Origin: a virus
Direction: 5' to 3' (one strand)
Virus record (IMG/VR): IMGVR_UViG_3300042890_003772
Span: 307-64,306 of that record
DNA: 64,000 nt
In this document: in pieces, positions 6,571 through 60,413 of the stretch
How positions within the stretch are numbered: position 1 is the first letter of the stretch
How the letters are laid out: each line of letters starts with the position of its first letter
Notes under the pieces: generated by a model
The model's input: the letters and a program-made list of their open reading frames with translations, nothing else
The model's database searches: none
Told to the model about the DNA's origin: nothing
Program-made: the position numbers and the translations under genes

Positions 6571-6609
6571 TTATGCACCTTTTGATTTAATTGATTGCTT
6601 TAAAATAAT

Positions 6610-8003: not shown

Positions 8004-8029
8004 AATAATCACCACGATAAAAAAATAAT

Positions 8030-8058
8030 ATTATAGTACACCTGCAATTATAAATCAA
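8030..8058 (-). promoter_or_regulatory. Sigma70-type early promoter, TTGATT-N17-TATAAT
   Basis: The reverse complement reads TTGATTtataattgcaggtgtacTATAATattattttt. It shares a 19-nt core with the rnlA promoter. Confidence 0.55.
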
Positions 8059-8121
8059 GTTATACGTGCATGTTATATGGAATAAATATATAATATACAC
8101 CTTAGATTTATGGAGCTATGT

Positions 8122-8376
8122 ATGCAATACGCTTTTAAGCACACAGTAACTGCTGTAAAATGGAATGGTAATAACTATCAAGCCATTTATGATATGACGG
8201 CTCAATTTAATTTAGAAAACACTCTTATATATGATGGTTCAAAATCATTATATGTAGGTGAAGAAGAGGCTGCGTTAGGTGAATACGTAGTTGTATGGCC
8301 TACTGTACCTGGTACTATTCAATCTGTGCTATACGACGAAGCATCATTTGAACATCAATTTGGAAAACTTCATTAA
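8122..8376 (+). CDS. Hypothetical protein
   Basis: ORF with GGAG 6 nt upstream of ATG 8122. Confidence 0.4.
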   Translation: MQYAFKHTVTAVKWNGNNYQAIYDMTAQFNLENTLIYDGSKSLYVGEEEAALGEYVVVWPTVPGTIQSVLYDEASFEHQFGKLH

Positions 8377-10326: not shown

Positions 10327-10895
10327 GACATCACCGCATCTTTAATCATACCATAATTTTGAATCATAATACACTTATTGTTAAGCATAACTTCATGACC
10401 TGTTTGTATAGCTTTATCCAATTCATTATTTTGATACGCATCAGCTATGCTAGCAACAGCATTTATTAATGATTGTTTAGAGCTTTCAAGTGTCTCAAAG
10501 TCAAAGGTTTTATCCAATTGAACATATAAATCACTAATTTGTTTGCTCCAAATATAGTGCAATTCGCCAATTGGAAACACCGCATAAACCGGTCCGTAAT
10601 ACCGTGCATCATCATAACTGCTAGATGCAAAAACGCCATTGCGATATGGAAAACCAAATGCACGCTTGAACGATTGATTTAGTGCATCGTGTAGCACTCG
10701 AGGGGTATCAACCGGAACTCTATTTAAGTTAGGTTCTATTACATTAAAACCTTCAACGTTGGTAAATCTACTACCTTTATATCCACGAAATAATGGAGCA
10801 CCGTCAGTATGCTTTAATACTTCAATATAAGGAGCACATAACTGCTTTAATTTAGCAATATCTACATCTGGAACTGCGATTTCGTATAATTTCAT
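10323..10895 (-). CDS. ADP-ribosyltransferase, ModA/ModB/Alt-like, paralog 1
   Basis: PLFRG, VFASSSYD and GHEVMLNN motifs. N-terminus MKLYEI. Confidence 0.55.
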   Translation of the reverse strand: MKLYEIAVPDVDIAKLKQLCAPYIEVLKHTDGAPLFRGYKGSRFTNVEGFNVIEPNLNRVPVDTPRVLHDALNQSFKRAFGFPYRNGVFASSSYDDARYYGPVYAVFPIGELHYIWSKQISDLYVQLDKTFDFETLESSKQSLINAVASIADAYQNNELDKAIQTGHEVMLNNKCIMIQNYGMIKDAVMS

Positions 10896-24062: not shown

Positions 24063-25367
24063 CTATAGCTCTAATTCTTGCAACTCTTTTCTGTACATTT
24101 TAATACAATTTGTCTTTACTAACACAGCAATATCTTTTTCTGTTTTTTCGATTGTTTTATCTAACTTGCTAATATCATCTTTAGTTAAATTATATAATCG
24201 AATATCCAATAAGCTGGTAATATCAATAAATCCATGTTCAGTTAATAAGTCTTCTAGCTCTTTTTTACTCTTACTTGAAAACAATTTACTGTTTTCAATA
24301 TACCACATAATAAATCTACGCTTCTCTGTATACCAGGTTAAATCCGCATTTAATAATTCTAATAATTTTAATCTGCGATCTTCATACTTATCTAATCTAA
24401 ACGCAACAAAGTAATCGATAATATCCTGAACCGACTTGAACACTTTAATATGACCTTCTTCAGTCCATGCAGTTAAGTTCTGAGTGTCTTTACCAATTAA
24501 CTTAAACTTAGTTAGAATCTCTTCATGTGATAATTGCGTTGTAGTTCTTGGAACATTTATATAAAAATCAAATGAAGCCTCAGTAGACTTATCTTCACTA
24601 TCTTTAATAAGCCCCGCATCCTGCATTTTTATTAAATGAGCCTTATAATCATCTTGATACAAGCCGATTGGTAATTCTGTAATTCTAATTGTTGTAGTGT
24701 TTACTAATTCATACACACCAGTGTTGATAATTTGCTCACCATTAGTACTAACAGTACCTTTAAATCCATTATACCAAGGTAATATACGTTCAGGTACTTC
24801 ACCAGATAATAAAGCTAATATGTTATCACGTAGATCTATAGGATTATGTTTTAATATATGAGTTGCGTATCCTGTACCCATACCTCTTGAACCGTTTATT
24901 AATATATTAGGTAGTATAGGTAAATAAAAATCTGGTTCAATTGGTTGTCCATCAGAATCTAAATGATTTAATATAATATCATCTTCTTTTTTAAATATCT
25001 TTCTAAAGCTATCCGTAAACTCGGTAAAGATATATCTTGGTGCTGATGCATCGCTAGATAATCTACTACCAAACTGACCATTAGGTTTAAAATAATTTAA
25101 GTTATTACTACCAGCATAGTTTTGTGCAAGCCCAATAATAGTTTCATTTAAACTAGCTTCACCGTGATGATAATCAGATATTTGAGATATAAAACCTGAC
25201 ACTTGAGCCACTTTAATTTCACCTGCATTTTCACCACGCTTGATCATTCCAAATATACATTTCCGTTGAGAAGGTTTAAACCCATCTATTACTGATGGAA
25301 TTGATCGTACACAATCAGCAATACTGTATTGCTTAAATTCGTTATCAAAGAAATGTTTAATCTTCAT
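24063..25367 (-). CDS. gp52: DNA topoisomerase II medium subunit (T4 gp52-like, GyrA N-terminal-like)
   Basis: IDGFKPSQRK, YHHGE, GQFGSR and RYIF motifs, as in T4 gp52. Confidence 0.8.
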   Translation of the reverse strand: MKIKHFFDNEFKQYSIADCVRSIPSVIDGFKPSQRKCIFGMIKRGENAGEIKVAQVSGFISQISDYHHGEASLNETIIGLAQNYAGSNNLNYFKPNGQFGSRLSSDASAPRYIFTEFTDSFRKIFKKEDDIILNHLDSDGQPIEPDFYLPILPNILINGSRGMGTGYATHILKHNPIDLRDNILALLSGEVPERILPWYNGFKGTVSTNGEQIINTGVYELVNTTTIRITELPIGLYQDDYKAHLIKMQDAGLIKDSEDKSTEASFDFYINVPRTTTQLSHEEILTKFKLIGKDTQNLTAWTEEGHIKVFKSVQDIIDYFVAFRLDKYEDRRLKLLELLNADLTWYTEKRRFIMWYIENSKLFSSKSKKELEDLLTEHGFIDITSLLDIRLYNLTKDDISKLDKTIEKTEKDIAVLVKTNCIKMYRKELQELEL

Positions 25368-25608
25368 TAGTGCACCCAGCGGTTTGTAAAAAATTAATTA
25401 ATCTATTATATTGGTTAAGTTCAAGATATGAGATATGATTATCCTGTGGATCTACAATATTATCTAATGAGGCATATCTTAATGTGGCTCCAGACCGAAA
25501 TGTTATCTTAACTAACTCATCTTGTATCCGATATGAGCGGACATGTTCTGCCAATATTCTAACCGGGTTAGTAGTAATATTATATTGCCGACCAGTAAAA
25601 CGTATCAT
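25357..25608 (-). CDS. Hypothetical small protein between the topoisomerase subunit genes
   Basis: 83-aa ORF that overlaps gp52 by 11 nt. Confidence 0.35.
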   Translation of the reverse strand: MIRFTGRQYNITTNPVRILAEHVRSYRIQDELVKITFRSGATLRYASLDNIVDPQDNHISYLELNQYNRLINFLQTAGCTNED

Positions 25609-27488
25609 TAATCATCTCCGCTTAGAATATTCAACCAGTTTTTACGTTCACCAGTTTTACCAACATCTTTACTAAACGCTAGCTTGATTGATGCAACATC
25701 ATGCTCATCTTCAATCTCATACTTAACTAGATTATTTTCAGAGTTAGCAAGATAACCTTTAAAGTCTGCTGCAGTACTGGTACCTAAACCTTTAAAATAC
25801 TTTGATGTAAACTTCTTGGTGTTTTTAGCTTTCCATTTATGAAAATCTTGTTCGTCGTAAAACTCAATTATATCTTTACCACAAGTAACTTTGATTAAGG
25901 GTGTTTTGAATCTATGAATAACATTAAGCGTAAACAATTCAGGCCAAAATGTATGAATCATGTTAATTAATAGCCCTGATATATGCGTACCATCTAGATC
26001 CTGATCGGTTAAGAAGCAGATTTTACCGTAACGTAATTGCTTAACATCTGTTACTTTTTCACCTAATTTTAAACCAGTTATAGTTAAGATGTTCTTAAAC
26101 TCTTCGTTTTCCATTAATTTTTTAGCAGTGGTGTTACCAACATTTAGCGGCTTACCTTTTAATGGAAACACCCCATGTATTTGAGGATCTCTAGCACTAC
26201 CAATAGCTTTTGCAGCTGAATCACCTTCTGTGATGAATACGATACACTTACTTCGATCTTTCTTTTCAACAGCATCAATAAGTTTAATAATTCGACTTGG
26301 ATCTAACTTATCAGATGTTTTATTTAATTTTCGTAACTCAGCTTGTAAATTAGCGTTTTCTTTTGCTTGAACCCAATCTAGAATGCTTTGAACTATTTCG
26401 GATTTAATAATTTTACCGATAAACTTATCTGTTACTTCAAAGGTGGTACCAAAATTTTTAACTTCAGTAATTAAATCTTCTTTTGTTTGACTAGAGTATC
26501 GAGGTCGAATAATATTACAGTTAATAAACAAGTTTAAATGATTCTTAATTTCACCAGGCCTAACTTGTACTTTGTGCTTTTTAAGAATATATTCTCTTAA
26601 TTTATTAGTTATTTGATCTGCAATATAACTTACATGCATACCACCAGTTATTGTTTCATTATTATTTACAAATGAAACATGACTAAACCCACCTTCAGAC
26701 TTACTAACTCCAACCTGCCACTTGTTATTCTCATCGTAGAGGTAGTCCTCAGTGTACATTCGTATGTAACCCTCAAAAGACCCAACGCTAACAAGTGAAT
26801 TATTTAAATATATCTTCAGGTGTGGATTACACCCGGCCACATCGTAGACACGCTTACAAAGCTTTTTATAGTTACCATCAGATAAACCTTCTAGATTAAA
26901 TTTTGCATAATCTGGATCAAATGTAATTTTAGTCATTCGATCTTTTGATTTTTTAATAATAGGTTCGGACCTAGCTCGGCTATTATCTGTATGATATTGA
27001 TTAAACGAGTTTTTACCATCGCACGTATGCACATGAAATGACTTACTAAAGATAGCTGTTAAGGCCGCACCTTCACCGTTTTGACCATTTAACTCAGTGT
27101 CTTCAGAGTCATCAAAATTACTACCAGATCTCAATTCAAATATCATTTCTGGAATATACTGATTATGTTCAGAATGTTTAACAATAACAATACCTCCGTT
27201 ATCATAAACTGATATAGCTCCAGTTTCTTGACTTATATCAACCTTAATAGTATCAACATGCGCACCTTCTGGCGTCTTAGCAAAATCAACTGAATTACAC
27301 AATACCTCATCAAAGATCTTAATTAACGCAGGCGTCCATGTAATCTGTTCTTTTACAAACTTATTATCTTCAATTACATATGTGTCAGCTGTATGTGCAG
27401 AAATGCTACCCACGTATCTACCAGGTCGTAATAATACATGAGATATTTCATCTAGTTTTTGATATTTTTGTTCAATGTGTTTTGTCAT
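25608..27488 (-). CDS. gp39: DNA topoisomerase II large subunit, fused gp39/gp60 type (GyrB-like ATPase plus Toprim)
   Basis: LRPGRYVGS and a GHKL ATPase with a Toprim region. The real start is MTKHIEQ at 27488, and the in-frame extension up to 27665 is rejected. Confidence 0.75.
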   Translation of the reverse strand: MTKHIEQKYQKLDEISHVLLRPGRYVGSISAHTADTYVIEDNKFVKEQITWTPALIKIFDEVLCNSVDFAKTPEGAHVDTIKVDISQETGAISVYDNGGIVIVKHSEHNQYIPEMIFELRSGSNFDDSEDTELNGQNGEGAALTAIFSKSFHVHTCDGKNSFNQYHTDNSRARSEPIIKKSKDRMTKITFDPDYAKFNLEGLSDGNYKKLCKRVYDVAGCNPHLKIYLNNSLVSVGSFEGYIRMYTEDYLYDENNKWQVGVSKSEGGFSHVSFVNNNETITGGMHVSYIADQITNKLREYILKKHKVQVRPGEIKNHLNLFINCNIIRPRYSSQTKEDLITEVKNFGTTFEVTDKFIGKIIKSEIVQSILDWVQAKENANLQAELRKLNKTSDKLDPSRIIKLIDAVEKKDRSKCIVFITEGDSAAKAIGSARDPQIHGVFPLKGKPLNVGNTTAKKLMENEEFKNILTITGLKLGEKVTDVKQLRYGKICFLTDQDLDGTHISGLLINMIHTFWPELFTLNVIHRFKTPLIKVTCGKDIIEFYDEQDFHKWKAKNTKKFTSKYFKGLGTSTAADFKGYLANSENNLVKYEIEDEHDVASIKLAFSKDVGKTGERKNWLNILSGDD

Positions 27489-27610
27489 GTATAATATCTT
27501 TAAGTTGAAAATGATTCTATTTAGCTTCGAGTGGCGCGTAGTATAGACAATTGGGATTGAAAAATCTACTACATAAATACAATATTGTTTTACATTTTTG
27601 AGATTTATAT

Positions 27611-28090
27611 ATGCTGAACCTATACTTCTATCATACAGCTCCAAAATCATTGCTACATCATCCAATTACAAGAAACGCAGGTAATATATATGACAATATC
27701 CCGCGGGAAATGATGACACACCACGAAGCTCTTGAGTTTATTAAGTCATTAAATGCTAATGAGCCCAACGACTGGCGATTGCCAACTGTGAGTGAAATGA
27801 AATCGCTACTAGCTGAAGCCGTTAGTCCCGGAACCCAAATGAACTACCGCATGCCAAATATCGACATATACTGGACTAGTGAAGCCGGTGAAGTGAGTGG
27901 TGTGCATGTAGTAATACCGTTTGATGATGGTGGTGGTGCAGAAGAAGGTGATCTTGAGGGGTTCTTTGAGTGGGCGGACATTGACGACCTTACCGACGTA
28001 GAGGTCGTAAGTGAAGAGGATGAAGCATACGTATACCCCGTACGAGGTAAACTTGAACCGTTCATTCCCGTAAGTCAACGCAATCAATAA
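27611..28090 (+). CDS. Hypothetical protein with a DUF1566/Lcl-like motif (WRLPTVSEMKSLL) and an acidic tail
   Basis: 159-aa ORF. Confidence 0.4.
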   Translation: MLNLYFYHTAPKSLLHHPITRNAGNIYDNIPREMMTHHEALEFIKSLNANEPNDWRLPTVSEMKSLLAEAVSPGTQMNYRMPNIDIYWTSEAGEVSGVHVVIPFDDGGGAEEGDLEGFFEWADIDDLTDVEVVSEEDEAYVYPVRGKLEPFIPVSQRNQ

Positions 28091-29416: not shown

Positions 29417-31195
29417 ATGTTACTTAATGAAATTGCTACTGATATTGCTCGGGATGAAGAGAACGATATTAATACGCACACATTTAATAGTGCTGCATCA
29501 GAAAAATTAGCATCAGGTACTAAGCAAATTAGAATTGATATGACTCCAGATGATGAGGATGAATTCGAGGCTCGTACCGAAATGGTAAAAAATAGTGTTT
29601 CAAATTTTAGTGGCTTACCAGCTCACGAACGTGCTACATTAGAGTTAAGTGCAAGACCACCAGAATATGTAACTGCGATATATGCATATACATTGAAAAA
29701 AAATCCAGGTACAGTTGATGATACTTTAAAGGTTATGCGTATCATGTCTGCAGTTAAGAACAGAAATTCTAAAGAAGTGATGCCTAAAGAAGAGGTTCAA
29801 GCTTATTTGGATGCAAGTGTAGAACGTATTTTAAAGCTTACAGGTAAGTATAGTCAAAGCATGAGTAAGTACGGTAAAAATAAGCGAGCAAATGACGAAG
29901 GTGATCGAATGCATCAAATTTACCGTCAATTTTTAGCTCCATACTTTACTGGTAAGTTTAATAAGAATAGTGTTATTGTACCGCTAGGTTCAACCTCTGG
30001 ATTAGTAGGTGAGTTTGCAGAGGCTTTGAGTAAAAAAATACACGTAGATCTTGATGTAGTATCAGGCGCATTTATTAAAAATCATTATCCTAAACTAGAT
30101 TGGTATAATAAGGGTACTAAGGATTCACTAGACCGTAAGGTATTGCGCACACCTAAGTCATACACAGATGAGTTAGAGCGCAACCCGTCAATGATCGCGG
30201 ATCCAACTGTGCAAGAATGGGTTAGAAAGCTATCAACAGCTAGATCACAGCTCGCTGCTGCTATAAAAGCAAAAGCGCCAGTAGGTGAGCAAAAACCATT
30301 AAAGGAACATGTAAATTTATGTCTTAAAAATTTAAGTCAATCATTAACGCATTACATCACGGCATCTCAAGCAGCGGTAAGTGCTACACTTAAGGAGATT
30401 GTTGCGTGCCGTAAAAGATATGCATCGCTTGAAGCGTGTGTTAAATCTACAGAATACAAAAAATTGCGCGCAAAATTTAAACAAGAAGTTGCTGTAATTA
30501 GAGCAATTACGTTACCTACATACGACGTAGGTCATTTTAATGATATTAAACAAGAGCTACATACCGTATCAACTTATATTGCTGCACAGGATAGTGTTGC
30601 TGATGATATCGATGAGATTGTACAGAATGTAAATGCAATGATAGCAGCCAGAGTAAATGATGCCCCATTACAGTTGCAGAATAGAATTGATAGTAATCGC
30701 GCTAAGTTTATTAGCAGTGTATCAAAATTAATTGATAAAGCTGTTAATGAACCATTTAAAGTTCATAATTATTATGCAAACCGAGATGTAAATAACGGTA
30801 AGGCGTTAAGTGCATATATGGTGTTACATGATAAGTTGTATGATAAACTTGACGGTAAAAATATTATCTTAGTTGATGATAATATCGGAACTGGTGCTAC
30901 TGTAATTGATGCTGTAAAATCAATTTATTATGCTGGAATATCTCCACGTAATATTATTGTTATGGCACCACATTATCTCGAAAGCGGTGATAAAGAAGAG
31001 GGTACCGATAGTAGGGCAATTGCAGCTGCAAAACGTGCGTATAATACCAGAGAAGCTGAAAATACAACAGTATTGCGTCAACCAGTAAGTTCAGCTGATG
31101 TTAAAAAGCATTTGAGCAACTTAGATCAGGTGAATAAGTTAAGAAACATTAACAAAGCTGGTGCAGAAAGACTCAAGAGTAAATTAGGTCAATAA
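29417..31195 (+). CDS. Phosphoribosyltransferase-domain protein with a long N-terminal helical region and a CTS-like N-terminus (MLLNEIATD)
   Basis: The C-proximal GKNIILVDDNIGTGATVIDAV is a type I PRTase or PRPP-binding motif. Confidence 0.5.
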   Translation: MLLNEIATDIARDEENDINTHTFNSAASEKLASGTKQIRIDMTPDDEDEFEARTEMVKNSVSNFSGLPAHERATLELSARPPEYVTAIYAYTLKKNPGTVDDTLKVMRIMSAVKNRNSKEVMPKEEVQAYLDASVERILKLTGKYSQSMSKYGKNKRANDEGDRMHQIYRQFLAPYFTGKFNKNSVIVPLGSTSGLVGEFAEALSKKIHVDLDVVSGAFIKNHYPKLDWYNKGTKDSLDRKVLRTPKSYTDELERNPSMIADPTVQEWVRKLSTARSQLAAAIKAKAPVGEQKPLKEHVNLCLKNLSQSLTHYITASQAAVSATLKEIVACRKRYASLEACVKSTEYKKLRAKFKQEVAVIRAITLPTYDVGHFNDIKQELHTVSTYIAAQDSVADDIDEIVQNVNAMIAARVNDAPLQLQNRIDSNRAKFISSVSKLIDKAVNEPFKVHNYYANRDVNNGKALSAYMVLHDKLYDKLDGKNIILVDDNIGTGATVIDAVKSIYYAGISPRNIIVMAPHYLESGDKEEGTDSRAIAAAKRAYNTREAENTTVLRQPVSSADVKKHLSNLDQVNKLRNINKAGAERLKSKLGQ

Positions 31196-31445: not shown

Positions 31446-31577
31446 ATGGATTTAATTATAAGTCTATTAGTTGCAATAGAGGTCTCAACTCTTTTGTTTT
31501 TTATATTTGCATTAGTGCCATTATCGGTACTGTATGCATGCACATTGCTCATCGTCAAAATTCGAGATAAATTATGA
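31446..31577 (+). CDS. Small membrane peptide (43 aa)
   Basis: MDLIISLLVAIEVSTLLFFIFALVPLSVLYACTLLIVKIRDKL. Its stop overlaps the next start (ATGA). Confidence 0.3.
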   Translation: MDLIISLLVAIEVSTLLFFIFALVPLSVLYACTLLIVKIRDKL

Positions 31578-32434
31578 AAAAAATATTACTTACAGTAGCT
31601 GTTGCAATGGCTGTTGCAACACTATCTGGTTGTTCAAATGTAAATGTGGGTGAAGTGGGGATCAAGGTTCACCTACTAGGTGGTGATAAAGGTGTTGATT
31701 CTGAGCAACTGGGTCCAGGACGTTATTGGATTGGTATGAATGAACAGTTATATACATTTCCAACGTTTATGCAAAACTATACTTGGGCTAAATCACACAA
31801 TGAAGGTCGTGCGGAAGATGAATCTATTACGTTTCAAACTAAAGAAGGATTATCTGTAAACGCTGATATTGGGATTACATACACTCTTCAACCAGATAAG
31901 ATTCCATTATTATTTCAAAAGTACCGCAAAGGTATTACTGAAATCACCGATATTTACTTACGTAATCTAGTTCGTGATGCTATTAATACAGAATCGTCTA
32001 CTAAACCAATTGAATCAGTATACGGTGAAGGTAAAGCGGAATTAATCAAAGCTGCTGAAGTTAGAGTACGTACCGAGATTGAACAGTACGGTATTCACTT
32101 AGATCACTTATCATGGGTCGGTAATATCAGACTACCAGAAACTGTAACTAACGCAATTGATGCTAAGATTTCAGCATCGCAAGTTGCAATCACACGGCAA
32201 AACGAAATCGAAACCGCTAAAGCTGAAGCACAGAAAGCGATTGCAATTGCAGAAGGTGAAGCTAATGCAAGATTGTTAGTGGCTGAAGCGGAAGCAAAAG
32301 CCATTCGCTTAAAAGGTGAAGCGGTTAAGAATAACCCAGGTGTGGCGGAATTAAACGCTATTGAGAAATGGAACGGGGTATTACCTGTAACCATGTTGCC
32401 AAACAGTTCTGTACCGATGATTGGTATTAAATAG
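31574..32434 (+). CDS. SPFH/Band-7 (stomatin/HflKC-like) domain lipoprotein
   Basis: Lipobox LSGC at residues 17-20. SPFH-like core and a C-terminal Ala/Glu-rich coiled coil (AEAEAKAIRLKGEA). Confidence 0.55.
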   Translation: MKKILLTVAVAMAVATLSGCSNVNVGEVGIKVHLLGGDKGVDSEQLGPGRYWIGMNEQLYTFPTFMQNYTWAKSHNEGRAEDESITFQTKEGLSVNADIGITYTLQPDKIPLLFQKYRKGITEITDIYLRNLVRDAINTESSTKPIESVYGEGKAELIKAAEVRVRTEIEQYGIHLDHLSWVGNIRLPETVTNAIDAKISASQVAITRQNEIETAKAEAQKAIAIAEGEANARLLVAEAEAKAIRLKGEAVKNNPGVAELNAIEKWNGVLPVTMLPNSSVPMIGIK

Positions 32435-32512
32435 CTTGATATTTACATCTAGTTGTACTATAATACCAATTGTTGTAAGAGGTAATTATTTTCACTAACT
32501 AAATAAATCATA

Positions 32513-33181
32513 ATGTTCTATGAATGTCAATTTTGTAATAAGCTTTTTAAGAGAGAAGCAGCTTTCATTAAGCATTACTGTAATGAAAGACGTAAGCATG
32601 ATGAACTTACTAACATAAACGGTCAAATAGGTTTCTTCTTATACGAACGCTGGGTGTTGATAAGACACAGTAGAACAGTTGATATAGAAGACTTTAAAGC
32701 GTCTAGATTTTTTAATGCATTTGTAAAGTTTGCAAAATATTATAAGTCAATTAAAGGTTTAGCAGATATTGATCAATTTTTACGGTTAATGATATCAAAA
32801 AATATTCAACCAAGTAACTGGGTAACTGATAGAGTTATTAGTTATTATTTGGATGTAGTTGATACCGCTCCACCGATACATAAGATTAACGAAACGTGTA
32901 AATATATTATAAAGCTGTCTGAGGCGTATGATTGCTCAACCAGTGAGATATATAAACATATTGATTTTTATGTAATGATAGATTTTATAAAGATGCATAA
33001 GTTATCACCATGGATATTACTACATAGTAGAAAGTTTATTGTATGGGTTAGGCATTTAGATGATGAGCAGCAATTAATAATTGATGCAGTAGTAGATAGT
33101 AGTAAGTGGAAGCACACATTTAGTGCTGATAGGAAGCATACTATATTAGCAAAACGTTGTTGTGAAGAATTAGATATATAA
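32513..33181 (+). CDS. Hypothetical protein with an N-terminal zinc-finger-like CxxC...HxxC
   Basis: MFYECQFCNKLF...HYCNE. Confidence 0.4.
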   Translation: MFYECQFCNKLFKREAAFIKHYCNERRKHDELTNINGQIGFFLYERWVLIRHSRTVDIEDFKASRFFNAFVKFAKYYKSIKGLADIDQFLRLMISKNIQPSNWVTDRVISYYLDVVDTAPPIHKINETCKYIIKLSEAYDCSTSEIYKHIDFYVMIDFIKMHKLSPWILLHSRKFIVWVRHLDDEQQLIIDAVVDSSKWKHTFSADRKHTILAKRCCEELDI

Positions 33182-33210: not shown

Positions 33211-33474
33211 ATGAGTGCAGAATTAGATACATCTGTGATACCAGAAGGGTTTTATTGTTACCGAACAGGTACTGATGGTGAGCCAGTTGTTTGTCCGTAC
33301 TGGAGTTTAAGTAGTGAACACCCTGAGCAGAGTAATGGTTTTTGCGCATTTTTAAATATTGGTGACTGGATGGAAAACGGATCCTGGTTATTATGGGATC
33401 AAATAAAAGAATGCGATGTTAATAACAATATAGAGTATAATTTAACTGGCATAGATGAATTAGATGTACTATAA
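33211..33474 (+). CDS. Hypothetical protein
   Basis: 87-aa ORF. Confidence 0.4.
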   Translation: MSAELDTSVIPEGFYCYRTGTDGEPVVCPYWSLSSEHPEQSNGFCAFLNIGDWMENGSWLLWDQIKECDVNNNIEYNLTGIDELDVL

Positions 33475-33495: not shown

Positions 33496-33831
33496 ATGAA
33501 AACAGCAAAAGAACGAAACGATAGTACCGTATATTCAATAAATAAAAAATTATCTTTTTTTGAACAACATTGCAATCAAGTTGATCACTTGTTAAATATG
33601 CGAGAAAATAACGGTGTATTTAATACAACATTAGTATATACTCACTCAAACGATTTTGTAAAACCGGATAGATATGATGTTATCTTTTTACCGTCTTCGC
33701 AGATTCAATCTAGTATTATTGATGATACAATTGTGTGGTTAATTGGATTAGGATACGAAGCAGTAAAGCAAACATTTACTAGTTCAAGCGGTAACGTATA
33801 TGTATCGGTATACGTTAACTGGGCCTTATAA
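33496..33831 (+). CDS. Hypothetical protein
   Basis: 111-aa ORF. Confidence 0.4.
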   Translation: MKTAKERNDSTVYSINKKLSFFEQHCNQVDHLLNMRENNGVFNTTLVYTHSNDFVKPDRYDVIFLPSSQIQSSIIDDTIVWLIGLGYEAVKQTFTSSSGNVYVSVYVNWAL

Positions 33832-33847
33832 TATTAGGAGTAAAAAA

Positions 33848-34036
33848 ATGCATAGTAGAATTACAGTAATTGAAAAGACAACCGAACATGATTTAAATAA
33901 AGAGCTTGTTGATTTTGCTCAGACCCATACTGTAATTGATACTTACTCATATAAATTTGACGAGACCAGGTTCTTCGTCGCAACACTAGCATCAAAACAA
34001 ATGTACCCGTCAACTGTAGACTTATTGGTGAATTAA
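33848..34036 (+). CDS. Hypothetical small protein
   Basis: AGGAG at 33836-33840 precedes ATG 33848. Confidence 0.35.
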   Translation: MHSRITVIEKTTEHDLNKELVDFAQTHTVIDTYSYKFDETRFFVATLASKQMYPSTVDLLVN

Positions 34037-34702
34037 TTGAAAATCGTAGTTTTAACCGGCGCAGGGATTAGCGCAGAATCAGGCATTAGCACATTCCGTG
34101 ATACCGAAGGATTGTGGGAGAGCAATAATATTGAAGAAGTCGCCTCACCTAATGGCTGGGCAGAAAATCCCGATTTAGTAAATAATTTTTATAATCAACG
34201 TAGAGCGCAGCTACAAACAGTTGAGCCAAATGCTGCACATATAGCATTAGTAGAGCTTGCAAAAAAACATGATGTGCATATTATTACTCAAAATGTTGAC
34301 GATCTACATGAACGAGCTGGATCTCAAAACATCCTGCATTTACATGGTGAGTTATTAAAAGTGCGTGATGAGGTTACAGGTGAAGTGTATTATCATCCTG
34401 GAGACTTAGATTATACAGAATTAAGTCCAAATGGAAACACATTACGTCCGCATATTGTTTGGTTTTATGAGATGGTACCATTAATTACTGATGCTCAACA
34501 ACTGGTAGCGCAAGCAGAACATTTAATTATCATAGGTACTAGTTTGCAGATATATCCAGCGGCAGGATTGATTGATTATGCACCAACTGGTTGCCCGGTT
34601 ACGGTAATTGATACAATTGACCCAGCAGCACAATATGAGTATACATTTATCAATGGTCCAGCTTCATCAAGAGTTCCAGCGTTTGTACAAACATTAATCT
34701 AA
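34037..34702 (+). CDS. cobB-like: Sir2-family NAD-dependent deacylase, CobB-like, lacking the zinc-binding cysteines
   Basis: VVLTGAGISAESGISTFRDTEGLWE, NVDDLHERAG, HLHGELLKVR and IGTSLQIYPAAG are near-collinear with E. coli CobB. CobB CxxC...CxxC positions are replaced by DE..G and NGN. TTG start with GGTGA upstream. Confidence 0.75.
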   Translation: MKIVVLTGAGISAESGISTFRDTEGLWESNNIEEVASPNGWAENPDLVNNFYNQRRAQLQTVEPNAAHIALVELAKKHDVHIITQNVDDLHERAGSQNILHLHGELLKVRDEVTGEVYYHPGDLDYTELSPNGNTLRPHIVWFYEMVPLITDAQQLVAQAEHLIIIGTSLQIYPAAGLIDYAPTGCPVTVIDTIDPAAQYEYTFINGPASSRVPAFVQTLI

Positions 34703-34711
34703 ATAATAATT

Positions 34712-34752
34712 AAAAAAACAGCGATAGTGCTTAGGTGCTATCGCTGTTTTTG
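34712..34752. terminator. Bidirectional rho-independent terminator
   Basis: acagcgatag...ctatcgctgt followed by a T-run. Confidence 0.7.
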
Positions 34753-35055
34753 TTTGTGCTTTTTTATTTTTCGCTCTAACGCATTAATTTGGTTAACGTA
34801 TACTTTATTAACTGCAACTAACTCCTCTAATCTATAAACATAATTAAGTTCAATACTATGAACTTTATTATCGTAATCAGCTACAACCTCAATATCATCC
34901 ATCCCTAATCTAACAACCTGCTTATGTAATTCCGCAAGCTGGTTATTCATCCAAAATATCGTGCAAAACCCCAAACGGATAATAATCACTTTATTTCTGC
35001 GAACAGATATTTTTTGTATATTAGGTGTGTTTAGCTCAAATTCTACTAAAAACAT
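34738..35055 (-). CDS. Hypothetical protein
   Basis: 105-aa ORF. Confidence 0.4.
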   Translation of the reverse strand: MFLVEFELNTPNIQKISVRRNKVIIIRLGFCTIFWMNNQLAELHKQVVRLGMDDIEVVADYDNKVHSIELNYVYRLEELVAVNKVYVNQINALERKIKKHKQKQR

Positions 35056-39288: not shown

Positions 39289-42200
39289 ATGTTAGCAGAT
39301 GGTTTACAGTTCCTAGAAGGGTCGGTCAATACTAATCTTGTTTTGCCCGCCTTGTCAGAAAGCGGTAGAAATGCATTAGTTAATGTTAATGTTGGTGAAG
39401 TAGTATTTCAGACGACCGGTCAAAAAGGTATTTACGTCTATAATGGTACTAGCTGGCAATATGGGCTATCTATCGCATTAGATAGCACAAATCCAACTAC
39501 ATTATTTGGATATGGAATTACAGATGCAGTTCGTGCAAATGCCGCCATTACCGCAGGTACTGGAACTAAAATCACATATGATAATAAGGGGCTTGTAACA
39601 GGGTCTACTACATTAGACATTAGTGATATTCCAAACCTACCAACCTCTAAATTAACTGGACAAATAACTATAGGTCAATTACCTGACCTAGGATCAACTG
39701 CAAGCACATATGTAAAAGTATATGTTGATGCAACAGGTCGTGTAGTTGGTGGTGAAACTACTGCCACATTAGCTACATTAGGTATTACTGATGCAATTCA
39801 AGCTAATACCGCAATTACAGCCGGTACCGGCACAAAAATAACTTACGATTCAAAAGGTTTAGTAATATCATCTGATGTATTAACCGCGTTAGATATACCA
39901 GATATAGAGACCAGTAAATTACTAGGTAGAATTACACCGGAACAATTACCATTGCTCGGTGATTCTGTTGCTGGGTACAGCAGTGTATCGATAGATGCAA
40001 CTGGTCGTGTGGTTGGAGGTAGTAATCCAACTACATTAGGTGGCTATGGTATTATCGATGCTGTGTTAGCTAATTCACAGATTGTAGGTAGCACAGGCAC
40101 TAAAATTACCTATGATTACAAAGGGTTAGTTACATCATCAACGCAGTTAATTGCGAGTGATATTCCATCGTTAGATGCAAGTAAAATTACCACGGGTAGA
40201 TTTTCAGCTAATTTCTTACCATTTATTGAGACATTAACACCTGGTACGTATACTAAAGTAACTGTTGATAGTACTGGTCGAGTAATTGCATGTGAAACAC
40301 CTACTACTATAGATGAGTATGGTATTACTGATGCAATGCGAGCTAATCCCGCAATTACACCAGGTACTGGTACAAAAATTACATATGATGCGCAAGGGTT
40401 AATCACAGATGCTGCAGTCTTAGCACCAACCGATATTCCAAGCTTACCAGCATCAAAAATTGTATCAGGGGTATTAAGTTCAAGTTTATTGCCAAACTCA
40501 GGTGTAACAGCTGGTGATTACTACAAAGTAACTGCAGATATACATGGTCGTATCACGGCAGGTGCTAGTACATTAGATATATCTGATATTACCGACTTAT
40601 CTACGGTATTAGCAAGTAAAGCTACTCCTGCAAACATCACTGACGCTATTGATGCAGTGTATGGTGGTGTAGGTGTACCTGGAAACACACTTAAAAAGAT
40701 TTACGATATTGCAGTTGCTAGCAACCACGAGATAACAGTCGCTGATACAAATGCAAGAATTGGAACATACGTTTCATCATTACCTACCAACATCTTTGTT
40801 GTTAACGATGGTGACGGTGAATGGGCGTTATATAAAGCGTTAGCAACCGGCCTAGCCACTAACAATAACGTTATAAAATTATCAGATCCTAGTATATTAA
40901 ACACCGCGAATGGTTATATACCTGAAGATCGTACAAATAAAGATACTGATCCAACATTAGCAGCTAATAGTGATATTAAATATCCATCACAAAAAGCAAT
41001 AAAAGCGTATGCCGATACAAAGGTACCTAAAAATGCGTTAATTACAGCTGGTACAGGAGCAAAGCTTACCTACAATCAATTTGGTTTGGTAACCGGAACT
41101 GGTACATTACTAGCTAGTGATATTCCAAACCTGGATGCAAGTAAAATTACATCCGGTATCTTACCAACATCAGTATTACCCACCTCAGGTGCTAACCCAT
41201 CACTATCATACGTAAAAGTAAACGTTGATACATATGGCCGGGTAATATCTGGATCAACAGAGTTAGCAGCAGGTAATATACCGTCATTAGATGCAAGTAA
41301 AATTACATCTGGTAAATTACTAGTTAGTGTAATGCCAAACTTAGGTACACCTGTATCAACGTACACCAAGGTACGTATTGATAGTACTGGTCGTGTGGTA
41401 TCTGGCTCAAATCCAACAGCACTCGCTGATTACGGAATAACAGACGCTGTTACAGCTAACCCAACCATTGCAGCTGGCGCTGGGATTAAGATAAGTTATG
41501 ATAGTAAAGGGTTAGTTACAGGCTCAACATCATTAGTAGCCAACGATATTCCAAACATATCCGCTGCAAAAATTACCTCAGGTGTTTTAAATAGCTCCGT
41601 ATTACCTACATCAGGTATTGCTGAAGGTAATTATAAATCAGTTACCGTAGATTCACATGGTCGAGTAATATCTGGTACAAACACATTAACATTTGATGAT
41701 GTATCTGGATTAACATCTGCGATTACAAACGCAGCATCTAATGCAAGTGTATCAACAGCAATTAATACAGCAATTTCTAACTTACGAGCTGATGTACCTT
41801 CTCAAGGAAGTACATTAAAAGGCTTGTACGACATGGTGCTGGCGAGCAACCATGAGCTTAACGCTGCAACAGTTGTAGCTAGAGATGCATTAGAAATTGT
41901 ATCGTTACCAACTAACGTATTTGTATTAGACGATGGTGACGGGCAATGGGCGTTATATAAAGCATTATATTCAGACTCACAGTTTAACGATTACCTCATT
42001 ACGCATCCAACAGCTGTTGCTAGCGATAGATATGTAAAGGTATCTGATCAAACATCATTGAACGCATCACTGGGTACATCTACTGAGGTTAAAACTAATA
42101 AATCAACAAATATTGAGCTACTTGATGGATTGTCAGCAAGTAACGTTAAATATCCAACACAGCTTGCAGTAAAAACATACGTTGATAACCAAATACAAAC

Positions 42201-45200
42201 AGTTGCAACTGTAGTTGCCGATTCATTAACAGATATTATTACAACATCTGCACTACCAGAAGGTGCTGATTTAGCTCTTAATAAATTAGTATTAGATAAT
42301 GATCCAAGATTATCTGGTAATAGTGCACCGATGTCTCATCAACATCCAATATCAGATATTATTGATTTAGCTACAATACTTGACGGTAAAGTTAACGCAA
42401 TCAGTATACCAGCTGGTAGCGGTCCATATATTACATATAATAATCAAGGTGTTGTAACTGCATCTAGACAACTAACCTCATTAGACCTACCGTTAGTCCC
42501 AGTAAATAAAATTGACGGTGTATTAACATCAAGTCAGTTACCAACTAATACTGTATATACTGATGTTAGCGGTACGATTGCAGTTAGTAAATTACCAAGT
42601 ACTGTTTTGTTATCAACAAACCTACCTGGTGATATAGTAACAACTAGTACTGGTGGTGTAATTGCTCAAGCTAAGTTACCAACTACATTAGTATACGTTG
42701 ATGGAACTGGTAAAATACCTGAAAGCTTAATACCGGCATCGTCTCAAGTATCGTTAATTGATACCATTACAGTTGCCGATTTAATTGAATTAAACGCTAA
42801 CACAACCGCGGTAGTTGGTACAATCGCAATTGTTGTTGATACTAGCGAAACATATGTACAAACAACCAATGGTTGGACCAAATTAAATGTACCGTCAGGA
42901 ACTGTATCATCTATTAATGGTCGCTCAGGTGTAATTAGTAAAATACTACCAGCTGATATCGATGGAGATTTTGTAAACTCTATTAATGGCCGTACTGGTA
43001 TAATCGATAAAATTCATACATCAGATTTAGATGGTAATTTTATTGAATCTATTAATGGTAAATCTGGGGTTATTAGTAAAATTGAACCAGCAGATATTAC
43101 TGGGTTATTTGATGATACATTAGCTACAGTAACATTATTAGCTGGGGTGTTACCAGAATTTACCGGTGATGTGTATTCAGAGATTGGTACAAACGTTTTA
43201 ACTTTAAATGATGTTCCAGGATTAGATACAGAAGTATTCTACTCATCAATTAAAGTTAACAGCAAAGGTATTGTTGTTGAAGGTAGTGAGGTTGGTAACG
43301 GTGGTTCAATAATATCATTTGAACAAACTGATGCACGATACGTACTTAAATCATACTTAGGACTAAAAGATACTGCTGGTGGTGTTGCTGGACTAAACAG
43401 TTCAGGTGTATTACCGCTAACTGTATTGCCAGCATTCACTGGAGACCTTACATCACCAGCTGGTTCAAATGTATTAACATTAAAAACTATTGCTGGTTTA
43501 AACAGTACTAATACATTCTCATCTGTTACTGTAAACCGTAAAGGTTTAGTAACTGGTGGTTCAACTCAAATTGTATATAATAAAGCACAAGCCGACGCAT
43601 TATTCTTATCTATTAATGACGCTGGTGCAAAAAATACAGCTAATGGATATGTCGGATTAAACGCTGATGCGGTGATGTATGCAGCTCAATTACCTGGGTT
43701 TGTTGGTGATGTAACTGCACCAATTGGATCACGTACATTAACATTGAATACTATACCAGGTGTTACACCTGGTGCAAGTTACTCTACTGTTGTTGTAAAT
43801 AGTAAAGGTATTGTAACATCAGGTACATTAGCTTCAACAGCTGCGGGTGATATTGCTGCAACATATGTAACAAAAGTATCATTAGGTAATAGAAACGCAG
43901 CGAACGGATACCTAGGATTAAATTCAAGTGCAAAAATAGACTCACAATACTTACCGTTATTATTCTTAAACAATAGATTTATTGTAAACACAATAGCTGA
44001 ACGTAATGCAATCACAGATGCACATATGGGTGATATTGCTATCGTTAATGGTTCGGTAGGTAAATGTTATATCTTAAATGCAGCAACCTCTGCTAATCCT
44101 GATAATTGGGTAGAATTGGTAACATCTAATAACGTTTACCAAGTAAACGGTAAAGCTGGTCTAGTAGAACTAGTATTAAGTGATATTAATGGTACACTTG
44201 ATATCAGTAAACTACCTATTCGTACTGCTGGTGATGTAATTACCGATCCAACAACGCGTGAATTAAGATTAAAAGATGTTGGTGTTAACGCACTAGCTAG
44301 TGGAGCAACTGCAACATATAAATCGGTAACTGTTAACAGTAAAGGTTTAGTAACGGGTGGATCAAATCCAACTACATTAGCCGGATACGGCATTACTGAC
44401 GCAATTAGTACACGTAGATTACCACTGCACGATGATGGTGAGGCACCATTCTTGACACTAGGTTTCGAAGGTACCATCGACCCAACCATGGTACAGAGTG
44501 ATATATTCACTGTAGACGAATTACCGGTTGATGGAGTAATTAACAAATTATATAGAATAGTTGGCACTAATAAGTCATACGTTTGGGACGGTACTGCATT
44601 TGTACAAATGACTACAACTGATGCAAGCTTGCTAAATGTTGGGACATTACCTGCAGCGAGATTACCAGCATTTACTGGTGATGCAACTGTACCGCTTGGT
44701 ACGAGTGCAATAACCTTAGCTAATACTGGTGTAACAGCTGGAACATACACACAGCTAACTGTTGATACTAAAGGTCGAGTAATATCAGCTACACAAGCAC
44801 CACCACCAGACGCATATACTAGATCACAAGCGGATGCAAAATATGTAACGCAAACATCGTTAGGTCTTAGAAATACCGCAAACGGGTACGTTGGGTTAGA
44901 TAGTAGCAATAAAATTGATTCCAACTTATTGCCATCGATATCAATAAGTGATATTTTCCCGGTAAACACATTAGCTGAACGTGATGCATTAACTACAACA
45001 CATATTGGTGATATGGCAGTTGTAGGTGGTGAGGTTAACGTTAACTATATCTTATCTGGTGTTAATCCTCGTGTGTGGACACCAATGGCTAACCCAATGG
45101 GTGGAGTCGTTGCAGTTAACGGTTCAACTGGATCAATAACATTAACGTTAGATAACATTTCTGGATCACTACAAAACTCCGCACTACCAGCGTTTGTCGG

Positions 45201-48200
45201 GGATATTACATCTGTAGCTGGATCTAATACGCTAACAATTGATAAAATTCGTGGAATAACAGTTGATGCAGATTTTAATGCAACTACATTACCTACAGAT
45301 GGATATTCATTAACGTATATGGCGAGTAGCGGTAAAGCTACTTGGAGACCAACCGGTACAGATGCAACTAACTTAATAACTGGTATTTTACCTGTTGGTA
45401 GATTACCTGCATTAACAGGTGACATCACAACGGTGGTGGGACACAATGTTGCAACAGTTGGTAAATTAAACGGTATTACATTAGATACCGGGTTTACTAC
45501 CGTTACACCACCAACTAATGGTTACGTGTTAACATATGCATCAGTTGGATCAAAAGCTACTTGGAAAGCATTAGATGCAAGTAAAGTTACTGTTGGTACG
45601 TTACCAGTAGCAAGACTACCGGCGTTAACAGGTACAGATGTAACAGCTGATGCTGGAACGGGGGTATTAAAGTTATCAACAACTGGTGTTGCTGCAGGCA
45701 CATATACTTCAGTTACAGTTAACACTAAAGGTCGAGTTACAGCTGGAACGGTAATACCAATCGTAGACGCATATTCAAAACTTGTATCTGATAACAAATA
45801 TGTTGCAAAATCAGTATTAGGTAACAGAAATACTGCTAATGGTTATGTTGGGTTAAATAGTGATAACAAAATGAACGTAGTTCATTTACCCGCTATTACC
45901 ATGAATATTATATTTGCTGTAGCTACATTAGCGCAAAGAGATGCACTAACAACTCAGCATATCGGTGATGTTGCTATTGTTGGTGGTACAGTTAATCGCA
46001 CATACATCTTATCAGCTGTTTCACCTAAAGTTTGGATTGAATTGCTGAACCCATTAGGTGGAGTATTATCACTCAATGGAGCTACAGGTGTTGTAAACTT
46101 AACACTAGATAATATTGAAGGTACATTACACTCAGGTGCATTACCAGCATTTACTGGCGATGTAACGTCAATGGCTGGTGATAATGTACTAGAATTAGCT
46201 GCAACTGGAACAGCTGGTACATACTATAAAGTTACTACTGATGTTAAAGGACGTGTAACATCAGGTGCAACAACACTTGCTGTTAGTGACTTACCAGAGC
46301 TACCATGGAGCAAAGTATCAGTCGATATGCCAACAACCTTGACTGGGTTTGGCATCACTGATGCGATTAATACATCAAGACTGCAAGCTGGTGATAATGG
46401 TGAAGATAAACTAGCTACCGTTGGTAGTAATGGTGCAATTGCTCCTAGTTTACTACCAGCGTTTACTGGTGATGATATTACATCAGCAGTTGGTTCGAGC
46501 GTATTAGCGTTAACCGAAACAGGTGTAACTGCAGGTACTTATACTGCAGTTACAGTAGATGTTAAAGGTCGTGTAACATCCGGCTCGTATGCTCCACCAC
46601 CAGATGCATATACAAAAACGGAAACTGACGGTAAGTATGTACTTAAAACAACTCTAGGTACAAGAAATGCTGCAAATGGCTGGGTTGGGTTAGATAGCAA
46701 TAGTAAAATTAGCGCAAGTTTATTGCCATCACTTGCTATTAACTCAATATATCCAGTTACCACAATAATAGCTCGTGACGCATTAACTACTACACATTTA
46801 GGTGATGTTGCGATTGTTGGTGGATCGGTAAATGTTAACTATATGTTAACATCGGTAACTCCAACAAGAGTATGGACACCAATTTCAAATCCATTAGGTA
46901 GTGTAACTTCCATCAATGGTTCAACAGGTGTAGTTACATTAGACCTATCAAATATAACTGGGACATTACGCCTCGACTCATTGCCAACATTTACTGGTGA
47001 TGTATCGCTATTACCTGAAACAAGCATACTTAAAGTTTTAAGCTTGAATGGTATAGTATTAGATACTACACATAATGAAGCTGTACTGCCAAACAACGGT
47101 AATGTATTAACTTACTCGTCAGCTGATAGTAAAGCTATGTGGCAGTCATTAAGTGCAAATCATATAGCTACAGGTACGTTATCTGCATCTGTAATGCCTG
47201 CATTTAATGGTGATGCCATTTCAACAACAGGTAACGCAAACCTAACAGTTGTTGCTTTAAACGGTATAGCATTAGATCGTGAATTTGATCCTTTCTCGCA
47301 CCCAACTAATAATCATGTACTTTCATATGATACTGCTGGAGTTAAAGCTACATGGAAAGCGTTAAGTGCGAGTAATATATTAACTGGTACATTGCCAGCT
47401 GGTAGATTACCGGAACTTATAGGTGATGTTACTTCAAACGCTGGATCTAATACATTACTATTAACTGATACTGGTGTTGTTGCAGGTACTTACAGTAGTG
47501 TAACCGTAGATACAAAAGGTCGAGTCGTATCAGGTACAGCTGTACCCAACACTGATGCATATTCAAAAATTGTCTCAGATAACAAATATGTTGCAAAAGT
47601 AACATTAGGTGGTCGTAATGAGATTAACGGATTCGTTGGATTAAATAGTGAACGTAAAATTGATGCTGTATATTTACCAGATATCACATTAAACGACATC
47701 GCTGTTGTATCAACCATAGTTGAACGAGATGCACTAACTACTAATCATATCGGTGATATCGCAATAGTTGGTGGTTCTGTTAATAAAACATTTATTTTAT
47801 CATCTACTTCACCACGCACATGGACAGAGTTAGTAAATCCATTAGGCGGAGTAACATCGTTAAATGGTCAAACAGGCAATGTAAATTTAACGTTAAGTAA
47901 TATTAACGGTATATTAGATACATCAGCATTACCAATGTTTACAGGTGATGTTACTTCACTTGAAGGTAGTAACGTATTAACTTTAGCAACTACTGGTGCA
48001 GCCGGTACCTATTATAAAGTAACTACAGATACAAAAGGTAGAGTAACAGCCGGTGTAGCCGCATTAGTTAGCAGTGATATCCCACCACTTAGCTGGAGTA
48101 AGGTTGTATATGGTAGACCGACAACACTAAGTGGCTACGGTATTACCAACGCAATTACTTCTGATAGATTACCGGTAGGTGATGATGGTGTTAGTAAGAT

Positions 48201-57908: not shown

Positions 57909-58715
57909 ATGCCTACTGTAATTGACAATAAGACCTCAAACTACGCTATACCGCTACCCGCGGTATCAAATCGATTAGTAGATGATATCGCTAGACTTTC
58001 TAGTGCATTGTTTACTATTGATCTTGTTTTAGCGTTAAAGCAGGATCAATCTACTGCAGGTGCAATTAACGGGATAGCTACATTAGATAATAACGGCCGC
58101 TTAACAGCTACGCAATTACCTGCATTATCAGGAGATGTAACACTAAACGCCGGATCCACTGCATTAACACTATCAAACACTGGGGTCTCCGCAGGGACGT
58201 ACAGCTCTGTTACTGTTGATACTAAAGGTCGTGTAACATCGGGGACAACGGTGTCTTCATCGACTCTCCAACCTACCGGAATTATAACAACAAATTATAC
58301 TGCATCTGTATACCAGCTTATCAAAGCAAGTACTGTTGATGGTATTATTACTATTATATTGCCGTCTACTCCGATAGACGGTGCAATGATATGTATTGTT
58401 GATGTTGGAAATCATTGTGGATTTAATGCAGTAACGATTCAATCCGGTGCAGGTGATACGATTAATTTTACATCATCGCAGGTATTAAATAATAATGGTA
58501 TGTGCATTACATATGTGTACATAGCCACTTCTGCCAATTGGCAGATATATAGCACCTCATTAGCAACTAGCGGTTCGACAAGTGGGTTTAATGGAGTTGA
58601 AACAAGATTAGATGGGGGAGCTCCATACATGGATGCAAGTACAACGATTATAATTGATGGCGGATCACCGATTACGATATTAGGTGTTCAAGATATTGAT
58701 GGAGGTAGTGAATAA
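57909..58715 (+). CDS. Tail fibre protein paralog C (268 aa)
   Basis: N-terminal NYAIPLPAVSNRLVDDIARLSSALFTID. A VTVDTKGRV motif and a C-terminal module. Confidence 0.6.
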   Translation: MPTVIDNKTSNYAIPLPAVSNRLVDDIARLSSALFTIDLVLALKQDQSTAGAINGIATLDNNGRLTATQLPALSGDVTLNAGSTALTLSNTGVSAGTYSSVTVDTKGRVTSGTTVSSSTLQPTGIITTNYTASVYQLIKASTVDGIITIILPSTPIDGAMICIVDVGNHCGFNAVTIQSGAGDTINFTSSQVLNNNGMCITYVYIATSANWQIYSTSLATSGSTSGFNGVETRLDGGAPYMDASTTIIIDGGSPITILGVQDIDGGSE

Positions 58716-60412: not shown

Positions 60413-60413
60413 C

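Follow-up and report, generated by a model that had tools for sequence, protein, structure and literature searches.

The DNA analyzed here is a 64,000-nucleotide stretch of a virus (IMG/VR virus record IMGVR_UViG_3300042890_003772, positions 307 to 64,306; hereafter the window), and our subject is a sirtuin gene that it carries, listed with the other features discussed below in Table 1. The TTG start codon of this gene abuts the TAA stop of the preceding open reading frame (ORF), and the start call is sound because orthologues begin at the same codon (TTG in L001, L010, and L004; ATG in L005 and L017, L numbers being our labels for the loci compared). The sirtuin belongs to a five-gene co-directional run (zf222 at 32513-33181, then ORFs at 33211-33474, 33496-33831, and 33800-34036, and the sirtuin) that follows a sigma-70-like promoter match, promoter-like sites not being enriched in the region, and a terminator-like hairpin separates it from a convergent ORF (34738-35055, minus strand).

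Table 1. Features of the window, with positions counted from its first nucleotide (aa, amino acids; nt, nucleotides)
Feature	Position	Strand	Description
Sirtuin gene	34037..34702	+	221 aa, TTG start, stop codon included; ORF listing, Pfam SIR2, PHROG 2162, and CobB match
NAD-binding motif	34058..34099	+	Residues 8-21, GAGISAESGISTFR; Rossmann glycine motif and start of cofactor-binding loop (F20, R21)
Class III Tyr/Arg pair	34190..34201	+	Residues 52-55, YNQR; equivalent to Escherichia coli Y92/R95
Nicotinamide-ribose/C-pocket motif	34289..34303	+	Residues 85-89, QNVDD; Q85, N86, and D88 invariant
Catalytic histidine H103	34343..34345	+	Equivalent to E. coli H147; invariant HLHGEL motif
Zinc-less beta-ribbon module	34346..34459	+	Residues 104-141 instead of zinc ribbon; 0 Cys
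D111	34367-34369	+	In place of first zinc Cys
S130	34424-34426	+	In place of a second-pair Cys
Substrate-binding "FGE" loop	34463..34471	+	Residues 143-145, FYE; Gly replaced by Tyr (Y144)
NAD-ribose binding and acyl-lysine tunnel wall	34535..34567	+	Residues 167-177, GTSLQIYPAAG
Intrinsic-terminator-like hairpin	34714..34751	+	17 bp stem then T run, 12 nt past sirtuin stop
Sigma-70-like promoter match	32436..32464	+	TTGATA-17-TATAAT, 11/12; best in region; consensus match only
222-aa C2H2-like protein (zf222)	32513-33181	+	N-terminal zinc finger; PHROG 11058, unknown function
PRTase-like 592-aa protein	29417-31195	+	PRTase-like C-terminal segment, residues about 444-528
RlaP nucleotidyltransferase	4025-4957	-	
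T4 Rnl1-like RNA ligase	5449-6570	-	
HD phosphohydrolase and AAA_33 kinase	6882-8015	-	
Zeta-toxin/AAA_33-type kinase	8373-9101	-	
Three tandem paralogues	9098-10895	-	197, 212, and 190 aa; 37% identical to one another; PHROG 11975/15932, unknown function
3461-aa ORF	39289-49674	+	Many internal repeats; tail-fiber/virion-structural PHROGs, 13 stretches to phrog_5181
565-aa Mtd_N-domain protein, 108-aa ORF (60414-60740), then 653-aa protein with five DUF285 repeats	58715-62701	+	

The predicted protein matches PHROG 2162 ("Sir2") and the Pfam SIR2 family (PF02146), the latter over the entire profile (positions 1-180 of 180; E = 3.5e-39; 135 bits, cutoff 24). Its closest sequence match in the PDB is E. 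coli CobB (1s5p; E = 6e-53; residues 2-220, 46% identity, three small indels only), followed by Sir2Af1 and SIRT5 at 1e-35 to 1e-37, Sirt4 at 1e-12, and SIRT1-3 at about 1e-7. Since CobB, Sir2Af1, and SIRT5 score far above SIRT1-3, the protein is, by sequence, a class III (CobB/SIRT5-type) sirtuin. The AlphaFold2 model is confident (mean predicted local distance difference test [pLDDT] 92.7; predicted template modeling score 0.90), with blocks of 95-97 over residues 100-140 and a sole weak block at residues 21-30 (pLDDT 63), the flexible cofactor-binding loop in which this is expected. CobB structures are the top Foldseek matches (6rxm, template modeling [TM] score 0.92, root-mean-square deviation 2.2 A over 227 columns), and TM scores of 0.88-0.89 to SIRT5 and Sir2Af1 place the model within the two-domain sirtuin fold. 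The top PDB matches, whether by sequence or by fold, include no close relative from the zinc-free subfamily described below. An initial annotation of the window had called the protein a CobB-like sirtuin, and the SIR2 profile, the identity to E. coli CobB, and the class III residues all bear this out. Every motif it quoted as CobB-like or as replacing the zinc site was also found in the translation: GAGISAESGISTFR...GLWE at residues 8-28, QNVDDLHERAG at 85-95, HLHGELLKVR at 101-110, KVRDEVTGEV at 108-117, LSPNGNTLRPH at 129-139, and IGTSLQIYPAAG at 166-177.

The catalytic core of the family is intact. The sirtuin has the G8-A-G10, Q85-N86-x-D88, and H103-G104 motifs, and 20 of its residues (G8, A9, G10, S12, E14, S15, G16, T19, F20, R21, Y52, R55, Q85, N86, D88, H103, G167, T168, S169, and P174) are invariant both in 70 homologues and in the phage clade to which it belongs, A175 being likewise invariant in the 70 homologues. 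Residues Y52 and R55, which we mapped to the E. coli pair through the offset to the engineered CobB variant positions A76, I131, and V162, are conserved in all 14 members of the phage clade and all 108 bacterial homologues; in SIRT5 and CobB, the Tyr/Arg pair recognizes acidic acyl groups. The tunnel motifs GTSLQIYPAAG and RPHIVWF agree with the bacterial consensus and are diverged in T5-like/rV5-like sirtuins. A departure is seen in the FGE loop, which clamps the substrate peptide and in which position 144 is Gly in 107/108 bacterial homologues and Tyr, Phe, His, Ser, or Thr in the phage clade. Residues other than Gly occur there in 17/58 viral-contig homologues versus 5/77 genome homologues and 1/108 of the top bacterial homologues, these samples not being phylogenetically independent.

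The Cys-x-x-Cys...Cys-x-x-Cys pattern of the small-domain zinc site is lacking from the phage sirtuin. The whole protein has a single cysteine, C186, and the only potential ligands of this kind among residues 104-141 are two histidines, H120, which varies among orthologues, and H139, which is also kept in zinc-containing CobBs. With no cysteine and only these two histidines in the segment, no alignment restores a Cys/His tetrad, so the initial annotation was correct that the zinc-binding cysteines are missing. AlphaFold2 predicts strands in the zinc-less module at residues 104-111, 117-119, and 135-140. Members of the phage clade uniformly have D111, S130, and G207 (14/14 each). The E. coli CobB zinc segment is itself degenerate, reading KVRCSQSG...DKCHCCQF rather than two CxxC pairs, and its annotated zinc ligands are Cys155, at the position of D111, and Cys174 (PMC10965786).

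The initial annotation considered a sirtuin without the zinc site unusual, a view that a wider census does not uphold. The CxxC...CxxC pattern occurs in 0/120 of the closest 90%-cluster sequences, the bacterial members of which usually read KVRS...GDLCEKGSQLRPH with 0-1 Cys. A broader sample comprised the best 150 representatives at 50% identity out of 1.84 billion proteins, of which 122 could be parsed by regular expression (many of the other 28 being shorter than a full-length sirtuin); 94/122 have 0-2 Cys in the segment and 28/122 three or more. Among IMG/VR viral-contig homologues, 55 of the 58 parseable sequences have 0-2 Cys, and four Cys were found in 0 of the 77 parseable sequences among the best 80 homologues from GTDB species genomes, which come from Flavobacterium, Myroides, Tenacibaculum, Chitinophaga, Parabacteroides, Marinobacter, Kushneria, and many Bacteroidota metagenome-assembled genomes. 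Four phage sirtuins, one each from a T5-like phage, an rV5-like phage, KVP40-like phi-pp2, and an uncultured phage of 462 kb, likewise have no cysteine in the segment. Relatives with a canonical CxxC...CxxC exist further out (e.g., P0152). A neighbor-joining (NJ) tree, rough in being distance-based and lacking support values, puts the sirtuin in a phage clade of 16 members. None of these has more than one Cys, and the zinc-less sequences among which the clade is nested number over 100. Members of the zinc-free subfamily are encoded on the chromosomes of Bacteroidota and some Proteobacteria and are common in phages, and the Cys4 site is not defining for it because most of the nearest relatives also lack the site. 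Since the closest bacterial and viral relatives are almost all zinc-less, the loss is older than the phage gene, and the absence of zinc ligands here is, to judge from these homologues, inherited from a large bacterial and phage subfamily rather than a phage-specific change.

The loss is already on record in the literature: Skliros et al. (2016) described the absence of the zinc ligand site in Sir2/CobB of phiSt2, phiGrn1, and KVP40 and suggested salt bridges as a replacement (PMC5107563). A literature search for zinc-free bacterial sirtuins found only this Vibrio phage paper and an in-silico note on acetic acid bacteria that bears on such sirtuins (PMC11820453); sirtuin reviews simply state a Cys4 zinc, and the Sir2La preprint is silent on zinc.

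The comparison that bears most directly on activity is with Porphyromonas gingivalis CobB (PGN_0004), which in vitro requires NAD+ to deacetylate RprY (PMC6032018). We recovered its gene from a metagenome contig (L170) by means of the published cloning primer; the contig also contains both PGN_0004 quantitative PCR primers and, with one mismatch, the reverse cloning primer. The encoded protein has a single Cys in the zinc segment and no CxxC, and is 52% identical to the phage sirtuin over its full length. PGN_0004 is thus a zinc-less member of this subfamily that works as an NAD-dependent deacetylase. Zinc-less class III sirtuins of this Bacteroidota type resemble the phage protein in their length (about 220-235 aa), in having no extra domains, and in the motifs GAGxSAESG, YNxRR, QNVDDLHERAG, HLHGEL, RPxIVWF, and GTSLxVYPAAG. 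They differ in having S111, usually C130, and G144, where the phage clade has D111, S130, and Y/F/H/S/T144 together with G207, and in being encoded by chromosomal housekeeping-type genes rather than borne by a phage. The E. coli enzyme (1S5P, 6RXJ) shares the catalytic His, the Tyr/Arg pair, and the tunnel residues, but has Cys155, Cys174, and Cys176/177 in a zinc module three residues longer, an N-terminal extension in its long isoform, and QNIDN and FGE in place of QNVDD and FYE.

Other phage sirtuins are more distant. The Sir2/CobB proteins of KVP40-like (schizoT4) Vibrio phages (phiSt2, phiGrn1, and phi-pp2), for which a deacetylase role has already been proposed (PMC5107563), are likewise phage-encoded, class III-derived, without zinc ligands, and located near the gene for the topoisomerase II large subunit. 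They are about 40% identical to the window sirtuin and diverged in the core (ANVSDL, FFNEG, GSTLEINP), where the window sirtuin keeps the bacterial consensus. In phi-pp2 (L007, 4076-6690), as in KVP40-like phages, Sir2/CobB immediately precedes gp39, the gene for the topoisomerase II large subunit, and the window sirtuin lies about 6 kb from its topoisomerase II genes (24063-27665), which may echo the KVP40-like position or be a coincidence. The T5-like, rV5-like, and Rak2-like sirtuins (PHROG 2162) share phage encoding, the lack of zinc ligands, YNKRR, and the catalytic His, but carry TNVDDL, HGYL, and GCSNQVINF with insertions. The window sirtuin is 30-37% identical to them versus 55-65% to bacterial CobB-type sirtuins, and is not affiliated with the T5/rV5/jumbo-phage sirtuin clade.

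The 55-65% identity is to chromosomal sirtuins of Bacteroidota, Marinobacter, and Vitreoscilla, and the phage protein lies inside that assemblage in the NJ tree, so that the host-derived acquisition suggested by the initial annotation is plausible as a bacterial origin. The major capsid protein is of the Gp23 type. It shares 62% identity with its counterpart in the jumbo Xanthomonas phage XacN1 and puts the virus near XacN1, its closest cultured relative, and Stenotrophomonas phage CM1. The 3-kb sirtuin region itself had no match in INPHARED phages by megablast, the virus being absent from that collection. In metagenomic contigs, orthologous sirtuins of 60-92% identity occupy a conserved locus with the order topoisomerase II, 592-aa PRTase-like protein, SPFH protein (missing in some relatives), 222-aa C2H2-finger protein, small ORFs, sirtuin, scaffold, and Gp23, which is kept in L001, L004, L005, and L010-L020. 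The ratio of nonsynonymous to synonymous substitution (dN/dS) of the sirtuin is 0.11 relative to L010 and 0.08 relative to L001, with residues 104-141 equally constrained, and the low values, extending as they do to the zinc-less module, mark the gene as functional. We infer that a jumbo myovirus lineage took the sirtuin from bacteria once the Cys4 site had already been lost, and that the gene has since been kept under purifying selection in a fixed place between the topoisomerase II and head genes.

Two neighbors at this locus deserve comment. At each of the clade loci examined for which enough upstream sequence is available, the zf222 gene precedes the sirtuin, but it is also present in 88 jumbo-phage records, including XacN1, RsoM2USA, PA5oct, and Rak2-like phages, and is therefore a core gene of the lineage and not a sirtuin partner. 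The SPFH/Band 7 protein (31574-32434, plus strand) and its counterparts in L004 and L011-L014 share 90-93% identity, whereas the genes on either side in those loci (C2H2 protein, sirtuin, scaffold, and Gp23) reach only 60-68%, an excess that suggests recent exchange or unusually strong constraint.

Our preferred reading is that the gene encodes an active class III lysine deacylase of a large zinc-free subfamily, acquired from bacteria after loss of the Cys4 site, and we put its probability at roughly 70%. We infer the activity and the targets of the enzyme from its conserved residues and from the P. gingivalis homologue. NAD+ would be seated in the Rossmann cleft by G8-A-G-x-S12, Q85/N86/D88, and G167-T-S169, and the acyl-lysine would enter a tunnel lined by A36, V87, V117, I140/V141, F143, and I172-Y173-P174. 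The acyl oxygen would then attack C1' with release of nicotinamide, H103 acting as the general base, and the predicted products are free lysine and 2'-O-acyl-ADP-ribose. Y52 and R55 predict activity on succinyl- and malonyl-lysine besides acetyl-lysine, and the altered FGE loop suggests a shifted peptide preference. The beta-ribbon, in other sirtuins the seat of the zinc, is here predicted to be a self-supporting three-stranded sheet, in which D111 and S130, at the former Cys positions, probably form a hydrogen bond. The likely role of such an enzyme would be to strip acyl marks off host or phage proteins during infection.

Several observations weigh against this reading. The NCBIfam CobB equivalog models (NF001755, NF040867, and others) all score under their cutoffs (7/7; best 215.9 versus 318), and by that measure the sirtuin is not a strict CobB orthologue. 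The count of cysteines is no more than a proxy for zinc binding and does not address a non-Cys metal site structurally. The replacement of the near-universal Gly of the FGE loop by a residue that varies within the phage clade could point to a different substrate. A measured activity was found in the literature for no phage sirtuin, this one included. Finally, the window holds an RNA-repair module at 4025-9101, and in L005 and L017 an RlaP orthologue (56% identical) lies directly downstream of the sirtuin.

The last of these observations fits a function in RNA repair, in which the sirtuin would act like KptA/Tpt1, removing the 2'-phosphates that remain at RNA breaks by NAD+-dependent ADP-ribosylation. 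In the proposal of Iyer, Burroughs, Anantharaman, and Aravind (2022), most phage sirtuins work in RNA repair with phage RNA ligase, kinase, and phosphoesterases in opposition to host anticodon nucleases, and the T5-like, rV5-like, and Rak2-like sirtuins are linked to RNA-repair genes in their own genomes (PMC9503650). A Metallophos phosphoesterase gene is also near the sirtuin in L005 and L017, with an NADAR gene in L005 only, and one may speculate that the Tyr/Arg pair binds phosphate. We nevertheless regard this function as unlikely for the window sirtuin. The RNA-repair genes of the window are 26-30 kb away from it, Pfam and PHROG scans found no macro, Nudix, 2H, RNA ligase, or NAD-salvage domain in the immediate neighbors, none of which shows an RNA-repair domain, and no RNA-repair gene lies within 5-10 kb of the sirtuin in L001, L004, and L010-L014. 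The canonical acyl-lysine tunnel (QNVDD, HGEL, GTSLQIYPAAG) is moreover kept as in housekeeping bacterial CobBs, whereas the T5-like/rV5-like sirtuins behind the proposal, which is itself untested, have diverged in these motifs and are only 30-32% identical to the window protein. A related and similarly doubtful suggestion is that the clade-specific D111, S130, and G207, with the loss of the FGE Gly, may mark retargeting of the enzyme, in infected cells, to a different substrate or reaction, for example 2'-phosphorylated RNA in concert with RlaP, ligase, and kinase, or a specific host defense or metabolic protein.

The initial annotation instead took the loss of the zinc-tetrathiolate as a possible sign of a switch to NAD+ hydrolysis or protein ADP-ribosylation, which could alter host NAD+ pools or counter Sir2-based defense, and it pointed to three ADP-ribosyltransferases and a PRTase-domain protein in the same genome. 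The former are probably the three tandem paralogues of Table 1, whose identity as ADP-ribosyltransferases was not confirmed: they had no PDB sequence match at E<=1, and AlphaFold2 on their three-sequence alignment gave an unusable model (pLDDT 40). The paralogues share the motifs LFRG, RNGIFATS, and HEVM, with a possible R-S-E ADP-ribosyltransferase triad. The PRTase-domain protein has a PRTase-like segment, with a retron type III-A PRTase effector as the best PADLOC match (30.6 bits, E=5e-8), but the Pfam matches are only sub-threshold (about 23 bits), and the protein is conserved but divergent, at 24-29% identity, in related phages. Defense-type SIR2 NAD+ hydrolases are generally without the zinc module. 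The missing cysteines, the replaced substrate-loop Gly, and the paralogues and PRTase-like protein as hints that NAD or ADP-ribose biology may matter to the phage would all fit such a switch.

We find this switch very unlikely, however, and the step from zinc loss to a new activity is not supported. The loss is common to hundreds of chromosomal bacterial homologues and hence is not tied to phage biology, and zinc-less P. gingivalis CobB is a working deacetylase (PMC6032018). SirTM ADP-ribosyltransferases, which share the sirtuin fold and the use of NAD+ and form the one well-characterized class of ADP-ribosylating sirtuins, keep the zinc domain, have the catalytic HG changed to QG, and are encoded in an operon with a macrodomain protein, GcvH-L, and LplA2 (PMC4518038); the window sirtuin retains H103-G104 and the full acyl-lysine tunnel, and its neighbors include none of these three. 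Weighed as a possible precedent for tying the loss of zinc to ADP-ribosyltransferase activity, SirTM was ruled out, as it keeps its zinc (PMC4518038). The SIR2 NAD+ hydrolases of defense systems (ThsA, DSR, SIR2-HerA, Avs5, and others) are multidomain and remotely related, whereas the window protein is a stand-alone deacylase-type core, and the PADLOC models of defense SIR2 effectors gave nothing above noise (13.6 bits at best, to an unrelated candidate model). Depletion of NAD+ would presumably also hurt the replication of the phage itself. The sirtuin gene might otherwise be a passenger, decaying or catalytically dead, that was captured from a host, has lost its structural metal, and is drifting, as the lost site, the TTG start, and the setting among small ORFs of unknown function would allow. 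This we consider extremely improbable given the dN/dS of 0.08-0.11 with an equally constrained zinc-less module, the unchanged locus of orthologues as little as about 60% identical, the invariance of all catalytic residues, and the confident AlphaFold2 model.

Elsewhere in the window, the 3461-aa ORF with tail-fiber and virion-structural matches has a counterpart of 3476 aa in L001. The Mtd_N-domain protein and the protein with DUF285 repeats are possible candidates for receptor-binding proteins.

The presence of a sirtuin in this virus is in itself ordinary, Sir2/CobB genes being frequent in phages (more than 1000 deposited phage genomes carry them) and the missing zinc site having been noted before. 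Of broader consequence is that the textbook Cys4 structural zinc fails for a very large class III subfamily, comprising the Bacteroidota-type and most phage sirtuins, and annotation rules or arguments that equate Cys loss with lost or changed function will mislead as a result. The phage clade, which lies near active bacterial enzymes and has a confidently predicted fold, is tractable for a comparison of deacylase and RNA-repair activities, and retargeting to RNA or to a host protein, if true, would give a phage sirtuin an assigned function for the first time.

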